Shown in pieces: positions 3,001-9,000 of a DNA stretch of 64,000 nt (position 1 is its first letter; every line of letters begins with the position of its first letter). A program made the position numbers. The DNA lies in NCBI GenBank assembly GCA_964429275.1, contig CAYSBJ010000001.1:124001-188000 (forward strand), in the 5' to 3' direction. The stretch is from an uncultured Pseudomonadota bacterium. GTDB taxonomy: Bacteria > Babelota > Babeliae > Babelales > JAUPTZ01.

Positions 3001-6000
3001 ACAACTTCAAGATAATCCCCTAATCCATGTGCTTCATCAAACCCAACAATTTGAACTGGAATCGATGGCCCTACCGCATCCACAAATGCCCCAAAACTAT
3101 CGATAAGCAATCGAACCTTGCCGGTAGTCTGACCGCAGATAAAGTAATCACCGCGGCGCAATGTACCCTCACGACAAATAACAGTTACTGCAAGACCATG
3201 GCCCTTTAGTTGCCGCGTTTCAAGAACAAAGGCGCGTGCGGGTATTTTTGTCGTTGTTTTAAGATCGAGCATGTCGGCCATAAGACCAAGCATATCGAGA
3301 AGATCATCAACTCCTTGTCCTGTCTTAGCAGAGATTTTCACGCACACAGTGTCCCCGCCCCATTCTTCAGGAGTCAAGCCATGCTGTGCCAGTTGCCCAC
3401 GCAGCGTTTCAAGTTGCGCTTCAGAGTCCAATTTATCAATTTTGTTAATAGCTACAACAATCGGAACGCCAGCTTGCTTTGCCAGATTAATTGCTTCGAC
3501 AGTTTGCGGCTTTATACCGTCATTAACCGCTACAATAATAACCGCAATATCAGTAATGCGAGTCCCACGAGTCCGCATAGCAGAAAACGCTTCGTGACCA
3601 GGCGTATCAAGGAAAATAGAATTGCGTTTACCAGTTTTTACTTCATAAGCGCTCAAGTGCTGCGTAATACCGCCCTTCTCCTTAGCAACGACATTTGTCT
3701 TGCGTAAGTAATCAAGCAGCGTTGTCTTGCCGTGGTCAACGTGACCCATTACGACAACAACAGGCAAGCGCTGCTCACTATGATCGTCTTTAGAGTTTGT
3801 TTTTTTGTCAGCAGCTACTGACACCGCATGCTTTTGCGTTGGCGCATCTTCAAGGACAAGTAATATGCTAAACGCTTCACACAAAAGCTTCATGTCGGCA
3901 ATCGTTAAAATTGCGTGCACGTTCTTTGCTATACCGTTTTTAAGCAACACAAAAATAACTTCGCCAATCGGTTTCTTCATCAAAGCAGCAAAATCAACCA
4001 GTGGCATGTCGCCAGAAGCCGCAACACACTCAACCAACGGCGGAGTTATAACGGTTTCACGATTGGTACGGCTTTGTTGTTGGACCGTCGTGGCTTCGGT
4101 ATCAGCATCATCTTTTTCTTTTTTATTGGATCGTTTTTTAGGCGCGACACCTTTTTTAGTGCTTGTTTTTTTGTCTACAAGCGCTGTTGCTGCAGGCGTG
4201 GCTTCAGGCCGACCGCCAACAGCTCCTGCTGGCCTGCGCCAAACGCCACGCTTGTCGTCTGCGCCTCCATCAGGACGAACCTCGCCAGTTGAAGATGGAG
4301 ATGAAGAAGATAGCGGTCGCGGGCTTCGTGGCACATAAGGGCCAGAGCCGGCAGGCCGCGGCGGACGTGGTCCTCGGGGAGCACCATCGTTGCTACCAAA
4401 TCGCGGTCCTCGTGACCGCGCGCTTTCGCCGCCAATAGTTCGATTCAACAACGCAGTCATATCAGTAGATAGATCAGAGTTCTGATCCGCCACTTGATGG
4501 CCATTTTGGCGTAAGGTATCTACAACGTCTTTAGGTGATAAATTATGCTCTTTTGCATACTCGCTTATACGCATATCGTATGGCTACTCCTCTGTACTTT
4601 TCTCTGATTCTTCTGAGAGTGCGCCCAAGTCAACATCAGCCGCCCCCGCTTTTTTCTGCGACCCATCTTCCTGCAGCTGCACGTGCAGACCGGTCAAGCG
4701 AGAAACAAGAGCGATATTTTGCCCCTGCTTACCAATCGCAAACGATCGCTGGTCTTGCGCCAGCCATACCGTTGCGCGCCCAGCTTCCTCATCAACTACT
4801 ACACGGTCGATTTCGGCTGGCTTAAGCGCTTGAGCAACCAATTGCTCAAGATCATCAGTAGCCTCAATAAGGTCTACTTTTTCTTGGCCCAATTCTTTCA
4901 AGATTGGGCGTATACGGACCCCGCCAATACCAACACAAGTACCAACTGGATCGATTTCTTTACTATTCGAGGAAACAACAACCTTGGACTTATACCCAGG
5001 AACGCGGACTACTTGCTGAATCTCCACTACCCCTTCAAAAATCTCAGGAATCTCAAGCTCTAAAAGCTTTTGAACAAATTGGCTTGAGGCTCGATCTAAA
5101 ATCAATTGATGATCAGCACGAGCGGTTGGCAACACATCCTTAAGCAAGGCGCGCATCGGGTAGCCTACCCGTAAATTTTCGCCCGGCACAGTACAGGATT
5201 TTGGCAAGAAAGCCATTGTTTCGCCCATCTTGACCACATATCCAGCGCGCTCTTTCTTGTGAATGCGGCCATTAATGATCGTCCCAGCTTTTTCTTTAAA
5301 TTCTTCGTAAATCGCTTGCTGCTCTACACCGCGAATTCCGCCCGCAATAAACTGTCGAGCTGCAGACATCTCAATCCGGCCCACAGCACCTGCAAACGTA
5401 TCAAGAACTACACTGCCAATCGTCGCTTCAGGATCAAGGATCCTTGCTTTGCGCAATGTGATTTCATTGTCGCCCTTGGCGTCAGATGCATCAACGACGG
5501 TCTTTTCGACCAAAACCTCTACCTGGCCGGTCTTAGTATTATACCGAGCCTGAAAAGAGAGATTAGGGTATTTTTTACGATAGGCAGTCAAAACACCATC
5601 ACGAATAACCGCAACGACCTTCTCCCTATCAAGGTTTCGTTCCTCAAGTAAGGACTCAATGACTTCAGCAAGATTCACGCTATAAACTCCAATACGCTTA
5701 AAGAAAAATCCGGGGAAAATGATTAACATCCCCGGAGGTTCAGATACCAGCACGCTTTGTTATGGGTACTAGTCTACCGATTTTGCACAGAAAGTGAAGC
5801 AACCGGTTTTTTAGCCCCTTAAGCCAGGACCTATTACTTCTTTTTATCACATGTTTATAGATTAATAATAATAAGGGAAGCGTTTTTTGTGGATAACTTC
5901 GCCAAAAGCTGCAAAAAAACCAATTAAATAGCCGATTTTGTTTTGGTCCTGGAATGTGGATAACTTGTGGATTCGTGTGGATAACTTGTGGATATCTTTT

Positions 6001-9000
6001 GCTTGTCCTTTGGATCGCCGCTCCAGGAGGCTCTTTTCAGAGGTGTGCGCTGTATCTTGCGATCTGCAGGCGCGATCCGAGCTTTGTCCACAGTGATTCC
6101 ACGGGGAATCCACAAGTTATCCACAGAGTTATCCACATTCTCCAGCCAAACCTCTTGTTGTTACAAATGAGCCAGGTTTGAGGGGGCTCGATGTGCTTGC
6201 TCCGATTATTTGGCGTCCAAAAATGCGATAAGACGAACGAAGTCGGCAACGACGGTGTCTTTGGCTGGCGGGTTTCTTAATAGATAAGCAGGGTGATAGG
6301 TGGGCATTATGGCAAAGTATTCTGTCTGTATGATTTGGCCGCGAATTGACGAAAGGCTTTGGGTATGATCCAAAAAGGCGTTGGTTGCGGTCGCTCCGAG
6401 GGTGCAAATAATTCGTGGCTTAATGATGCTAATTTCCCGCAATAGGAGAAGGCTTATGCAGGTGCCGCTTTCTTGGGGCAACGGTTGTCTATTTTCTGGT
6501 GGGCGGCAGCGCGCTGTGTTGGCGATATATATTTTATCCCGCGTAAGGCCGAGCCCATCCATCATTCCAGTGAGAAGTCGTCCCGATCGGCCAACAAAGG
6601 GCCGGCCAAGTGCGTCTTCTTCTCTTCCTGGAGCTTCGCCAATAAAGATTGCAGGGGCGGTGGGGCATCCTTCGCCAAACACCACTTGTGAGCGCCCTTG
6701 CGTGCCGAGTGGGCAGCGCTGACAGTTTTTGTAGTATTCGTACAGTCGCTTGAGGCGATCGCCTGGTGGGGCATCTTGGTGCTCGTGGGGTTGTGTGAAA
6801 AGTTGTTTAAGCCGCGCTGCGACTTCTGGTTTTAAGGAGAGAGTCAATTGCTGCCTTCCGAGTCTTTGTTGCGATTGTGAGGTCGCAATTCTACCACACT
6901 ACAAAAGAAAGGCAGAGCGCAAAATCAACGTAGATTGAGATACTCTTTCAAAAATGGCACCCAGCGCGTTTTTTGAGCGAACGCCGTTTTGTGGAGGGAT
7001 GGATGAATAACGCGTAATGGGAATGAGATTGATATCCCGCGCGAGAGTATCGGGTTGCCGGCAAACGCAGGGCCGGCTGTGTAGCATGGCACTACTTTGT
7101 AGAGGATTTCGAGTGTTTGTACACAGCGAGTCACCGCATCTTGCATTTTTTTGGTGGTTTCAGGGTAATTATTGCGGAAATTATTTAAATTAAGCGCCTG
7201 GCGCAGGCCATTTTGTATGCTTATTAAAAAGAGGTGTAAATCGATGTATTCGTTGAAATAGAAGTCGCAGAATTGATTTTTTTTCTTACGAGCGTCGGTT
7301 ATTACTTGCCGAACAAGATTGGTTTGCGGGCCCTTTAAGAGGGTGGTTAATTTATCAGCAACATCACTGAGTCCTTGCTCTAGCAGATCAAAATACGTAG
7401 ATTGTCCGCTTTGTGGCTTTGTCGCAAGATCGTAGATGGCAAGTGTGTAATCGGGGAGCATGTTCATATACTCTTCTCGATAGGCATTGACTATGTCTGT
7501 GGAAAATTCAAGCGCAGTGCGTGGTTCCTTTGCGACTTTTTCAAAGGCACGTGAGTAATTCCATCCATACGCAATTTCCACTTCTTGAGACGCAATGACG
7601 TAACTTACGAGCCCTTTTACCTGAGCCGCGATTTCAATTTGCCCACAACAGCAAACATCGAGGCCGAGTATATCGATTGGGTCTCCATTTAAACATGTGC
7701 GCGAAATAGTACTGAAAGCTTGCGTGAGGTCTTGATTTGAGAGGTAGTAGCCATAGCTGTCGTTAAACGCTATGCCCCGACTATTTGGGATGATGGAGTC
7801 AGTGTTGGGGTTGCGCCAGCCGCTTGGATCTATTGCGCCGGAGCCGTGATTCCATATAATAACGCATTGCTTCTTCGCCTTAAATTTCTGCATGCCGGTC
7901 TGGAGGAAATCAGTGAAATTTTGTACTGAACCGCTGTTGTAAAGTTCTGGATGTGCGTTTCGTTCGGCCTGAGCAATGGATGAGGCGCGCCAGTAAGTCG
8001 CAAGGGCTCCTTTCTGTACAAGTGAACGCGTGACTTCGCGGGTGCCAAACTTGTCGACTTGTATGATGATGTTGATTTTGTCATTAGAGCCAATACGCAT
8101 GGTTTGTTGAATATTTGCTTCTAAGAATTTGTGGAGATTGTTGTTTCCAGCAATGTAGATGAAAATATTCCATTCTTTGATGCTGTTTATATCGCGGTAA
8201 GGAACTTCGTGGGGTGTTGCCGGAGTGATAATTCTGCTGACAGGTGTTGATCGCGCGCTTGGATTGTTCGTATTTTGTGAGCTCGGGTGCAACCCGGTTT
8301 TTGCGCTGCAGCAGAGCGTTACGCTGCAAAATGCTACGAAGAGACGGAAATAAGTGAAAAAGCTATGAAGCATACACATCCTTACGCAAAAAAAGAGGGG
8401 CTTTGTGTATACCTTATTTTTTTTTATTGACGCAAGAAGACAGCAGAAACGGTTGCTGTTTGTAGTGCCCGTAGAGCATTAAAATCATTGTTAAAAAGAA
8501 GCTGAGCTGAAAATCAAGGCATTCAGCTTGCCATGGATTGTACAGTAAAATAGCGAGCGCAAGATGTATGAGTCCAAAAATAGGGGATGCAGCATTACTG
8601 GAAAGCCAGCCGCCTAAATAAAAAAACCAAAGCCACAGGGACCGATTAAACGATATGCTTGCCCAGGATAGATGGTCGTAGACAAAAAGAATGATACTTA
8701 AGACAATTGCCTTTAATGGGAAAGGAATAGGGATGAAGCGCAAAACCCCGGCCCATAGCGAAATGAGCAATGATATATGAAGGCCTGATCGCGCAAGGTA
8801 ATGGGTGAGCCCCCATCGGGTGAATTTTGCACGAATATCCAAAAAGTCTTCACGGTCTTTGTTGCCGAAAAAAAGCGCTGAGAAATATGTGAATACTTTG
8901 TCAGGGAGCAATGATTTTATATAGGTGTAGAGTTGTTCGCGCCAGCTATGCCACCAGGCGATCCAGATGCCATAATATGTTTTTTCTGGTAATTTGCGTG

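Follow-up and report, generated by a model that had tools for sequence, protein, structure and literature searches.

Genes flanking the putative replication origin

The genome studied here (G000; GC content 46%), from a member of the Dependentiae (Babeliales), has been assembled in draft form into three large contigs, C1-C3. The analysed window is a 64,000-nucleotide stretch of C1, whose position 1 corresponds to contig position 124,001; coordinates given without a contig name count along this window. The genes of interest are infB (2280-4574; Pfam GTP_EFTU, IF-2 and IF2_N), located downstream of nusA and read in the same direction, nusA itself (4584-5685, ORF to 5753; Pfam NusA_N and KH_5), transcribed away from the putative origin, and udg (6206-6847), transcribed towards it. 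All three lie on the minus strand. The udg ORF (213 aa, TTG start), pointed out in a preliminary description of this region, encodes a family-4 uracil-DNA glycosylase: it matches Pfam UDG with 119.7 bits and NCBIfam TIGR00758 (UDG family 4) with 175.6 bits (cut-off 125.3), and an alignment of nine orthologues contains 46 invariant columns.

Judging from the sequence, nusA probably starts at the GTG codon at 5683-5685 and not at 5753. This GTG and the GGAG upstream of it are invariant in all five congeners, and the NusA_N domain has its first residue at position 27 in the long ORF but at 5-9 in relatives outside the family. With the start at 5685 the non-coding spacer would be about 520 bp long, as against the 450 bp described previously. 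The nusA leader contains a hairpin (5709-5736, with an 8-bp GC stem in the predicted fold) followed by a U-run (5699-5708; the whole element spans 5699-5736, minus strand), which looks like a terminator or attenuator. Its stem, CCGGGG/CCCCGG, is replaced by CCAGGG/CCCTGG in genome G002, and the z-score of the whole stretch is just -1.76. A further block (5770-5804, minus strand), composed of TTCACT, 16 nt and TAGACT, is nearly invariant in the five congeners and may hold the nusA promoter; a consensus promoter scan did not report it and found no more sites than in shuffled sequence.

DnaA-box cluster and GC skew

All scans were based on the DnaA box consensus TTATCCACA, the reverse complement of which, as read on the plus strand, is TGTGGATAA. 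Seven boxes with at most one mismatch, five of them perfect, are grouped within 250 bp (5888-6137), at 5888, 5955, 5976 and 5987 (one mismatch) on the minus strand, and at 6084 (one mismatch), 6117 and 6129 on the plus strand; with weaker boxes included, the cluster comprises ten. Perfect boxes number 14 on C1-C3 (8, 4 and 2, respectively). These counts reproduce those given previously, as does the uniqueness of the cluster: no other 300-bp window of the genome contains three or more boxes at this threshold. When two mismatches were allowed, the origin window had nine boxes and every other window in the genome at most six.

The cumulative GC skew reaches its minimum at C1:130,000, in the same kilobase as the cluster, and its maximum at C2:240,000. 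In 1-kb steps the skew changes from -0.111 (C1:129,001-130,000) to +0.130 (C1:130,001-131,000), and the values for the arms are about -0.13/+0.14 and +0.12/-0.13. With replication proceeding from the nusA-udg spacer, 455 of the 775 ORFs of at least 150 aa (59%) are co-oriented with it, and in six out of six genomes the operon of ribosomal protein L2 is transcribed in the direction of replication. As stated before, the spacer is conserved in all four congeners compared, now measured at 68-88% identity, and matches no Rfam family at E values up to 1. The origin region has three GATC sites versus 1.5 expected, i.e. it is not enriched in them.

Anatomy of the putative oriC

From left to right, the first element is a predicted, AT-rich DNA-unwinding element (5831-5874), which is the most AT-rich part of the spacer, at 82% over the 40 nt from 5831 to 5870. 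Its origin-proximal end carries a DnaA-trio-like sequence, readable directly as four tandem 5'-TAA-3' triplets (3'-AAT-5') at 5863-5874 on the plus strand, with GAT and ATA triplets directly upstream. After a spacer of 13 nt (5875-5887) comes a lone perfect DnaA box (5888-5896, minus strand), which corresponds in place to R1 of E. coli. It is separated by 58 bp (5897-5954), consisting of A-tracts and then T-tracts, from the left array (5955-5995, minus strand), in which four head-to-tail boxes at 5955, 5966, 5976 and 5987 (0, 2, 0 and 1 mismatches) follow each other with a period of 10-11 bp. A relatively GC-rich central spacer of 88 bp (5996-6083; AT 38-47% in 40-nt windows) then leads to the right array (6084-6137), whose five boxes at 6084, 6095, 6106, 6117 and 6129 (1, 3, 2, 0 and 0 mismatches; period 11-12 bp) have the opposite orientation, on the plus strand.

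The 58-bp spacer is fixed in length across families and variable in sequence, although tracts of A and of T reappear in it. Because in E. coli the gap after R1, between R1 and R5M, holds an IHF site, this spacer may act as a bend or as an HU/IHF site; two genes of the HU/IHF family are present in the genome. Taken together, a box cluster at the skew minimum and a complete set of the elements of a DnaA-dependent oriC support the earlier proposal that the nusA-udg spacer is the origin.

The opposite pole: a dif-like site, dnaN and dnaA

The preliminary description had placed dnaA and dnaN beside the terminus, with the reservation that no dif site was found with the E. coli consensus. A pattern search has now located, at C2:241,602-241,624, a dif-like site present in one copy, which removes this reservation. 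The site lies 0.4 kb from recF, 1.5 kb from dnaN (C2:243,142-244,341, minus strand) and 35 kb from dnaA (C2:276,837-278,258, plus strand), in agreement with the earlier placement. It is flanked by rplI (L9)-dnaB-ruvC on one side and recF-dnaN-xerD on the other, both reading towards it. Although dnaA and dnaN are 33 kb apart, dnaN and recF are still adjacent. The genome encodes exactly two tyrosine recombinases, with XerC and XerD as best matches (both scoring under the NCBIfam equivalog cut-offs), one of them 3.9 kb from the dif-like site. The skew switch reported at about C2:240,000 holds as the cumulative maximum, but it marks one end of a plateau of zero skew that covers C2:240-256 kb. Similarly, the 1.3 kb upstream of dnaA indeed lacks boxes at up to one mismatch, but it is mostly coding and is interrupted, within a tandem-repeat gene, by a scaffold gap of 100 N (C2:275,571).

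Among the 151 genomes searched, the dif-like pattern occurs at up to one mismatch in 52, nearly always in one copy per genome, and was not found in 99; the same pattern read backwards, as a control, matched seven. In 28 of the 29 genomes with both on one contig, representing nine families, the dif-like site and dnaA are 13-66 kb apart (median 45 kb); in congener G003 the distance is 36.9 kb on an ungapped contig. Nine of the ten genomes tested have a switch from positive to negative skew no more than 100 kb from dnaA; in G144 no switch was seen within 100 kb on either side. In G091 the terminus is approximately 95-100 kb from dnaA, which is surrounded by a 40-kb patch of near-zero skew. The candidate oriC and dnaA are on different contigs (C1 and C2) of our draft, so that only relatives give the distance between them: six of the genomes listed have the arrays on the same contig as dnaA, at a distance of 433-693 kb (40-50% of the genome), and in none of the six are the two neighbours.

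Conservation of the origin among relatives

The oriC layout was recognized in all 11 loci from relatives, belonging to seven families, even where the box sequence has drifted. In each of them nusA is on the unwinding side, an AT-rich stretch is at the equivalent place, and arrays of 2-5 boxes with a period of 11-12 bp are accompanied by an inverted array; udg is opposite in nine. The arrays are about 100-130 bp apart, a distance kept as a length class and not as a sequence. The skew flips from negative to positive at the homologous arrays in all five relatives measured (G022, G020, G015, G010 and G091). With register and 13-nt spacer held fixed, at least four TA[A/G] triplets are present in seven of the 11 loci, G005 has four trios with a spacer of 14 nt, and in G010, G028 and G016 the trios are weak. 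In 14 relatives, namely ten of the 11 main loci, G058, G047, G064 and G023, a lone box accompanies one of the arrays, at 65-68 bp on its outer side; in the remaining locus, G025, none was found at up to one mismatch.

By the exact tandem-box pattern, the inverted array is detected in 53 of the 151 genomes. The pattern is absent from the other 98, including 54 of the 55 genomes of family f19; the three f19 genomes examined have variant boxes in its place. G023 had been reported to lack the exact paired box, which is true of the exact pattern, yet at its skew flip, at nusA, it carries variant-box arrays (TTATGCACC, TTATCAACC) with an 11-bp period and a lone box at 67 bp. G058, G047 and G064 show a like layout with TTATCAACA or TTATCCACC. 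No boxes were found upstream of nusA in G144. An origin far from dnaA is the arrangement of the order as a whole and is not peculiar to the genome studied here.

Comparison with known origins

In the oriC of E. coli, R1 and R4 enclose a pair of oppositely oriented arrays (PMC4285127), and the locus resembles it in having such arrays, with sites 2 bp apart and high-affinity flanking boxes (PMC4285127). In both, an AT-rich element is followed by 13 nt, by TGTGGATAA (R1) and, at the far end, by TTATCCACA (R4); in the annotated E. coli oriC the 13 nt lie between the R 13-mer and R1. In either case transcription of the left-hand gene points away from the origin and that of the right-hand gene points into it (mnmG/mioC versus nusA/udg), and neither oriC is adjacent to dnaA. 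The gap after the first box, start to start, is 55 bp in E. coli and 67 bp here. On the other hand, our array sites are mostly perfect or near-perfect boxes, in contrast to the low-affinity sites of E. coli, GATC enrichment is missing and the flanking genes differ. The E. coli oriC is roughly 42 kb from dnaA, whereas here this distance is about 40-50% of the chromosome.

The published unwinding module combines a box with at least three trios, separated by about 13 bp (13 being the commonest spacer length; PMC8287927). Our locus shares with the basal unwinding system (BUS), described for Bacillus subtilis and others (Pelliciari 2021), the box, the 13-bp spacer, at least four trios with a central A and the AT-rich DNA, but its trios are 3'-AAT-5' and not the commonest 3'-GAT-5', and its proximal box is single, unlike the tandem pair of BUS (PMC8287927). 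The weakness of the trios in three of the 11 relatives is a further difference.

Contrary to the earlier statement that no paper deals with oriC of Dependentiae, two reports each predict an origin in one sentence. Deeg 2019 placed that of Chromulinavorax destructans at 651,641-652,233 of 1,174,272 bp on the basis of GC skew and TTATCCACA (PMC6561590), i.e. in the same phylum and by the same kind of evidence as ours; the sentence mentions no anatomy, flanking genes or relation to dnaA or the terminus. Pagnier 2015 put the origin of B. massiliensis, a relative in culture, 152 nt upstream of dnaA (PMC4378268). An oriC remote from dnaA was also predicted by skew and boxes in Prevotella intermedia, and according to DoriC this is common in Bacteroidetes (PMC4755523). 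In P. intermedia dnaA is about one third of the chromosome from oriC, and the passage on it reports no link with the terminus (PMC4755523), whereas here dnaA and dnaN are tied to a dif-like site. Usually oriC is flanked by dnaA, sometimes by dnaN (PMC4285127). The genes of the canonical dnaA-dnaN-recF region are all present in our genome, with dnaN next to recF, but this block is beside the terminus, with dnaA removed from dnaN and both genes boxless.

Alternative explanations

E. coli is known to have DnaA-box clusters outside its oriC (PMC5010248), and a weak promoter-like match, on the same strand as nusA, overlaps with the lone box. The cluster might be a DnaA-titrating or recycling locus (datA/DARS type) or a nusA operator, with replication starting elsewhere. 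We consider this very improbable: being the only cluster in the genome, it leaves no alternative candidate origin, it is within 1 kb of the skew minimum here and in five relatives, and it is combined with trios and an AT-rich element in an oriC arrangement. An exchange of the two poles, with initiation beside dnaN and dnaA, reversed skew polarity and the nusA arrays at the terminus, would agree with the origin of B. massiliensis as published (PMC4378268) and with the genes around C2:241 kb (dnaA, dnaN-recF, rplI-dnaB), which are usual neighbours of bacterial origins. However, no DnaA boxes were found near dnaA or dnaN, and the dnaN region is occupied by the dif-like site and the xerD-like gene. 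Moreover, the exchange would turn 59% of the genes, and the L2 operon in all six genomes, head-on and make the leading strand C-rich; to our knowledge, neither a majority of head-on genes nor a C-rich leading strand is known in any bacterium. In G091, the record of which begins just upstream of dnaA, the skew turns from negative to positive at 652 kb, at the arrays. We regard such an exchange as extremely improbable.

Equally hard to credit is the idea that the closeness of dnaA to the terminus is an artefact of assembly or scaffolding of C2. A misassembly in B. longum once gave just such a signal (PMC1285363), and the 100-N gap does lie between terminus and dnaA, 1.2 kb upstream of the latter. 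Nevertheless, the gap interrupts a tandem-repeat gene with one repeat unit common to both sides, the skew is negative on either side of it, the dif-like site and dnaA share one contig in G003 and lie 13-66 kb apart in 27 more genomes, and single-contig genomes repeat the pattern. A different matter is whether these positions, though real, are functionless, i.e. a frozen ancestral rearrangement in an order in which gene order changes slowly. We regard this as more probable than not: the L2 operon, a control marker, keeps its relative position (0.59-0.66 of the replichore in five of six genomes), and the nusA-udg neighbourhood is kept in nine of 11 relatives. Against it, the dif-dnaA distance varies and the strand of dnaA differs between genomes, which indicates local rearrangement, yet dnaA never left the region. 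This explanation concerns only persistence and is compatible with the one we prefer.

Proposed mechanism and evolution

Based on these observations, we suggest that the segment 5831-6137 is very probably oriC, with the dif-like site, dnaN and dnaA at the opposite pole, and that this arrangement is ancestral to the order. DnaA would bind the opposed left and right arrays, of four and five boxes, respectively; as the boxes are one helical turn apart, the bound DnaA could oligomerise head to tail. The lone, presumably high-affinity box, lying beyond a probably bent spacer at 67 bp from the left array, would place DnaA beside the four TAA trios, 13 nt away, from which it could spread onto single-stranded DNA and open the adjoining 82% AT stretch. 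The forks would meet across the chromosome at the dif-like site, the putative target of XerC/D.

With dnaA and dnaN beside the terminus, the genes for the initiator and the clamp would be among the last DNA replicated. Because gene order in general is conserved within the order too, the conserved position of dnaA does not demonstrate selection. We hypothesize that both poles, nusA-oriC and dif-dnaN-dnaA, date back to the ancestor shared by all members of the order.

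The predicted origin of replication

The draft genome of G000, the Dependentiae (Babeliales) bacterium under study, amounts to 1.208 Mb, with three large contigs (C1-C3) of 570, 393 and 211 kb that have a GC content of 46%; the window corresponds to C1:124,001-188,000. Four further contigs (C4-C7, 4-13 kb) have a GC content of 60-70%, as against 46% in the main contigs, and probably represent foreign sequences within the bin.

Our results indicate that the spacer between nusA and udg is the predicted chromosome origin, and the proposal made in the preliminary description is right in this respect. 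Within 250 bp the spacer carries 10 DnaA boxes, five of them perfect, a cluster unique in the genome. The seven sites matching TTATCCACA with at most one mismatch (positions 5888-6137, five perfect) were recovered as previously described, and so was their status as the sole cluster. In total, 14 perfect boxes occur on C1-C3, and no other 300-bp window of these contigs holds three or more boxes at this stringency; when two mismatches were allowed, the origin window contained nine boxes and every other window at most six. The cumulative GC skew minimum of C1, reported earlier for the same kilobase, was again found at C1:130,000, where the skew of successive 1-kb windows goes from -0.111 to +0.130. 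The predicted oriC thus coincides with a switch of strand compositional asymmetry, both in G000 and in five relatives.

Other signals were searched for in the same region. As already noted before, there was no Rfam match between positions 5300 and 6500. The number of GATC sites at the origin, considered as a Dam/SeqA-type signal, was not notable (three against 1.5 expected), and a consensus promoter/terminator scan of positions 5500-6400 gave no more matches than shuffled sequence. ParB and parS, considered as an independent marker of the origin, were not informative, as no ParB_N match was found in G000, nor was any parS-like site seen near the origin. The DnaA protein of G000 matched DnaA_N, Bac_DnaA and Bac_DnaA_C, and scored 500 bits with TIGR00362 (cut-off 343.9); judged by these domain matches, the genome codes for a complete, four-domain cognate DnaA.

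The nusA gene (minus strand) most likely starts with the GTG at 5683-5685 and not at 5753, which would make the non-coding spacer about 520 bp long. This GTG and a GGAG are invariant in five congeners, and NusA_N begins at about residue 4 counted from it, which is close to the residues 5-9 seen in relatives of other families. In the nusA leader, just upstream of the ribosome-binding site, a GC hairpin precedes a U-run (5699-5736, minus strand). The stem of the hairpin shows one compensatory change in the relative G002, and the structure could be a NusA-sensitive attenuator. A conserved block at 5770-5804 may be the nusA promoter.

The predicted DNA-unwinding element (5831-5870), which at 82% AT is the most AT-rich part of the region, lies beside a lone perfect DnaA box (5888-5896). 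Four TAA triplets (5863-5874) mark the end of the AT-rich stretch and are separated from this box by a spacer of 13 nt. On the other side of the lone box, 58 bp with A-tracts and T-tracts lead to the left array of four boxes, which begin at 5955, 5966, 5976 and 5987 (span 5955-5995, minus strand) and share the orientation of the lone box. A relatively GC-rich central spacer of 88 bp then separates the left array from the right one, whose five boxes at 6084, 6095, 6106, 6117 and 6129 (span 6084-6137, plus strand) are opposed to it. The box period within the arrays is 10-12 bp, i.e. one helical turn. We infer that the 58-bp spacer, which is fixed in length and rich in A and T tracts, may be bent by an HU/IHF-type protein, as IHF does in E. 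coli-type origins between the first box and the left array; two genes of this family are present in G000.

The far side of the spacer is bounded by an ORF at 6206-6847 (minus strand), identified earlier as an uncalled udg gene. Profile scores exceeding both cut-offs (TIGR00758, 175.6 against 125.3 bits; Pfam UDG, 119.7 against 24.3 bits) assign it to the family-4 uracil-DNA glycosylases, and it aligns with orthologues that hold the equivalent position in relatives.

Conservation of the predicted origin in relatives

Counting G000 itself, 23 of 31 related genomes show a match to the 452-bp spacer, and the conservation previously described for congeners, i.e. over nearly the full length in all four, could be reproduced. 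The layout itself recurs as well. At each of the 11 loci retrieved, representing seven families, a minus array is followed, after about 100-130 bp, by a plus array, and at 10 of them a lone box is situated 66-67 bp outside one of the arrays. The nusA gene is always on the lone-box side (11/11), and udg is found on the opposite side at nine loci, its position being taken by Peptidase_C11 in G010 and by NlpC/P60 in G016.

An exact tandem pair of perfect boxes was detected in 53 of 151 genomes at least 90% complete, at one locus per genome, and the reversed-pattern control gave no match in the 151 genomes. In family f19 the exact pattern is absent from 54 of 55 genomes. Two members of this family, G047 (locus L173) and G064 (L172), have the same layout made of TTATCCACC. 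In G058 (L171, family f12) it is built from TTATCAACA, while G023 (L174), which keeps both the 11-bp period and the 67-bp lone box, uses TTATGCACC and TTATCAACC. The layout is therefore retained with variant boxes across families, and its geometry is more conserved than the box sequence. Such drift of the boxes, with spacing, inversion and lone box preserved, suggests that DnaA domain IV and its site have evolved together.

In all five genomes tested (G022, G020, G015, G010 and G091) the GC skew turns from negative to positive across the arrays, and in G023 the skew switch is located at nusA. The genome G144 lacks boxes upstream of nusA, and its skew does not switch within 100 kb of dnaA. Where the others have the origin, it carries four copies of a 102-bp tandem repeat (L170:1-575).

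Comparison with known origins

In the published basal unwinding system, a DnaA box is followed, across a spacer of 13 bp, by three or more triplets with an A in the middle and then by AT-rich DNA; it is defined by a box with at most two mismatches within 16 bp of at least three NAN triplets, and 13 bp was the commonest spacer in the survey concerned (PMC8287927). The origin of G000 has a perfect box, a 13-nt spacer and five NAN triplets out of six, four of them TAA. At eight of the 11 loci this trio module is clear; in G010, G028 and G016 it is weak.

The annotated oriC of E. coli K-12, used as a control for origin anatomy, agrees with this in order and orientation: AT-rich 13-mers come first, then 13 nt and TGTGGATAA (R1), with TTATCCACA (R4) at the far end. 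The flanks are alike too, since mnmG reads outward and mioC inward, as do nusA and udg, respectively, in G000. The low-affinity sites of E. coli are described as two opposed arrays bounded by R1 and R4 (PMC4285127). G000 likewise has two opposed arrays with sites 2 bp apart and high-affinity boxes bounding them. Given the shared order and the opposed arrays, the G000 origin therefore looks like a high-affinity version of the E. coli two-array design.

The predicted terminus and a dif-like site

The cumulative skew of C2 reaches its maximum at 240,000, which is the edge of a near-zero-skew plateau extending to about 256 kb. Similar plateaus, 16-40 kb long, were observed in several genomes (G000 C2:240-256 kb, G022 1,240-1,275 kb, G020 428-448 kb and G015 410-450 kb); they could reflect variable meeting points of the forks or recent local rearrangement.

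When terminus regions were scanned with a partial dif consensus, a single strong candidate emerged in each of G000, G020 and G015, and the three have a motif in common. Thus, whereas the preliminary description had found no dif site, a single-copy candidate, CCGATAA-TGACAA-TTATGTCAAA, is now placed at C2:241,602-241,624, outside the window. It fits the general form of dif (28 bp, two 11-nt arms, a 6-nt centre and a conserved XerD arm). The derived pattern CCGATAA-N6-TTATGTYAAA matched 52 of 151 genomes with at most one mismatch, nearly always once; read backward as a control, it matched seven genomes. The site is intergenic (ORFs end at 241,088 and start at 242,053) and lies 1.6 kb from the cumulative skew maximum. 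Exactly two tyrosine recombinases are encoded in G000, with best matches to XerC (280.7 bits) and XerD (261.2 bits), both below the equivalog cut-offs of about 330, and the XerD-like gene is 3.9 kb from the dif-like site.

On one flank of the site are the genes for L9, DnaB, RuvC and a TPR protein, and on the other those for RecF, DnaN, an unknown protein, the XerD-like protein and ProS, with RecA at a distance of 17 kb and DnaA at 35 kb; on both flanks transcription runs towards the site. Genes for replication and recombination (rplI, dnaB, ruvC, recF, dnaN, xerD-like and recA) are densely packed in the interval C2:237,597-259,153. The terminus neighbourhood of G000 resembles a classical origin neighbourhood minus the origin.

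Position of dnaA and dnaN

In textbook bacterial chromosomes dnaA, and often dnaN, lies beside oriC, and both origin-finding software and genome depositors rely on this link. In G000 we confirmed the coordinates given earlier for the two genes near the terminus (dnaA, C2:276,837-278,258; dnaN, C2:243,142-244,341), with the dif-like site 35 kb from dnaA. The reported lack of DnaA boxes upstream of dnaA also stands, as none accompany either dnaA or dnaN.

The dnaA gene is present in 151 of 151 genomes. Among the matches listed, at least six genomes (G015, G032, G010, G020, G022 and G091) carry the box arrays on the same contig as dnaA, at a distance of 433-693 kb, corresponding to 40-50% of the genome (467 kb round the circle in G091); no arrays adjoining dnaA were seen among these matches. 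The positive-to-negative skew switch lies less than 100 kb from dnaA in nine of 10 genomes tested, the exception being G144. The distance is 21-37 kb in G000, 47 kb in G023, 40-60 kb in G020, 39-79 kb in G047, 40-80 kb in G015, G058 and G064, about 70-95 kb in G022 and about 95-100 kb in G091; the terminus of G010 is past the contig end. In eight of the 10 skew-tested genomes dnaN falls within the terminus interval or at its edge. Where dnaA and the dif-like site share a contig, they are 13-66 kb apart (median 45 kb) in 28 of 29 genomes from nine families; the outlier, G094, has a dif-like site with a mismatch in the XerD arm. In two single-contig genomes, the distance from nusA to the dif-like site is 49.9% (G047) and 46.0% (G058) of the chromosome. 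We conclude that the predicted layout, found throughout this order of a candidate phylum, is the reverse of the textbook one: oriC by nusA, and dnaN-recF together with dnaA by dif.

A similar signal was once produced by misassembly (PMC1285363). The dif-dnaA layout is agreed on by about thirty independent assemblies, and the congener G003 reproduces the G000 distance on one contig (36.9 kb). In G000, C2 contains a gap of 100 N, 1.2 kb upstream of dnaA, with the same unit of a tandem-repeat gene on both sides. The gap falls within the repeats of this gene (C2:274,309-276,602), which diverges from dnaA and encodes a protein whose tandem repeats are rich in N, Q, A and T. An origin hidden in this gap was ruled out, since the gap lies inside tandem-repeat coding sequence.

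Polarity of the chromosome

As genes usually found near origins sit in the terminus neighbourhood, we also considered that origin and terminus might have been swapped. This reading would imply that the leading strand is rich in C and that most genes are head-on. With replication starting at C1:130 kb, 455 of the 775 ORFs that are 150 aa or longer are co-oriented. Polarity could not be read from rRNA operons, as no 16S rRNA is assembled in G000 (contig breaks may therefore fall at these operons), and the L2 ribosomal operon, used as a substitute, is co-directional in all six genomes. The opposite pole is marked by dif-like sites, and boxes are missing beside dnaA and dnaN. We therefore regard an exchange of the two poles as highly improbable and retain the origin at nusA.

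Published origin predictions in the phylum

Contrary to the earlier statement that no paper deals with oriC of Dependentiae, predictions do exist. In one sentence, Deeg 2019 predicted the C. destructans origin from skew and TTATCCACA (PMC6561590), and Pagnier 2015 used GC skew to put that of B. massiliensis at 152 nt upstream of dnaA (PMC4378268). In the literature outside subscription journals and DoriC, we found no description of terminus-linked dnaA/dnaN or of a nusA-linked origin. For Bacteroidetes, an oriC remote from dnaA is reported to be common (PMC4755523).

G091, a single contig whose record begins just upstream of dnaA, has the negative-to-positive switch and the arrays at 652 kb and the opposite switch near 95-100 kb, and within 3 kb of dnaA there is only one box, with one mismatch. 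Around dnaA, some 40 kb (G091:C1:1-40,000) show near-zero or slightly negative skew in an otherwise positive arm. This patch could stem from a local inversion and might mislead a skew-based origin call beside dnaA. Our observations suggest that at least one published origin placement beside dnaA in the phylum deserves re-examination.

Persistence of the layout and its meaning

Selection on the position of dnaA is not claimed here, because the L2 operon, our single positional control, is conserved in position as well (0.59-0.66 of the replichore in five of six genomes); slow rearrangement alone may account for dnaA remaining beside dif. The S10/L2 operon (C1:516,755 in G000) sits at roughly 60% of the distance between origin and terminus in five of six genomes, a remote location that would be expected without selection for replication-linked gene dosage. 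A bolder scenario, which we think unlikely, is that in the Babeliales ancestor the origin left the dnaA-dnaN-recF / rplI-dnaB neighbourhood, which now brackets dif, and that the resulting position is kept by selection as a once-per-cycle timer linking the end of one replication round to competence for the next in these obligate intracellular parasites. As the initiator and clamp genes are copied last, their dosage would double only at termination.

The origin itself is an unusually clean example of the two-opposed-array design, with near-consensus boxes and a geometry kept despite box drift between families, and would thus be well suited to in vitro studies of DNA opening by DnaA oligomers. 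The layout also offers an easy guide to the orientation of Dependentiae genomes and to estimating growth rates from read depth, where the peak would be expected at nusA and the trough at dnaN. Finally, the order might serve as a natural experiment to learn if cell-cycle control depends on where dnaA sits in the chromosome.
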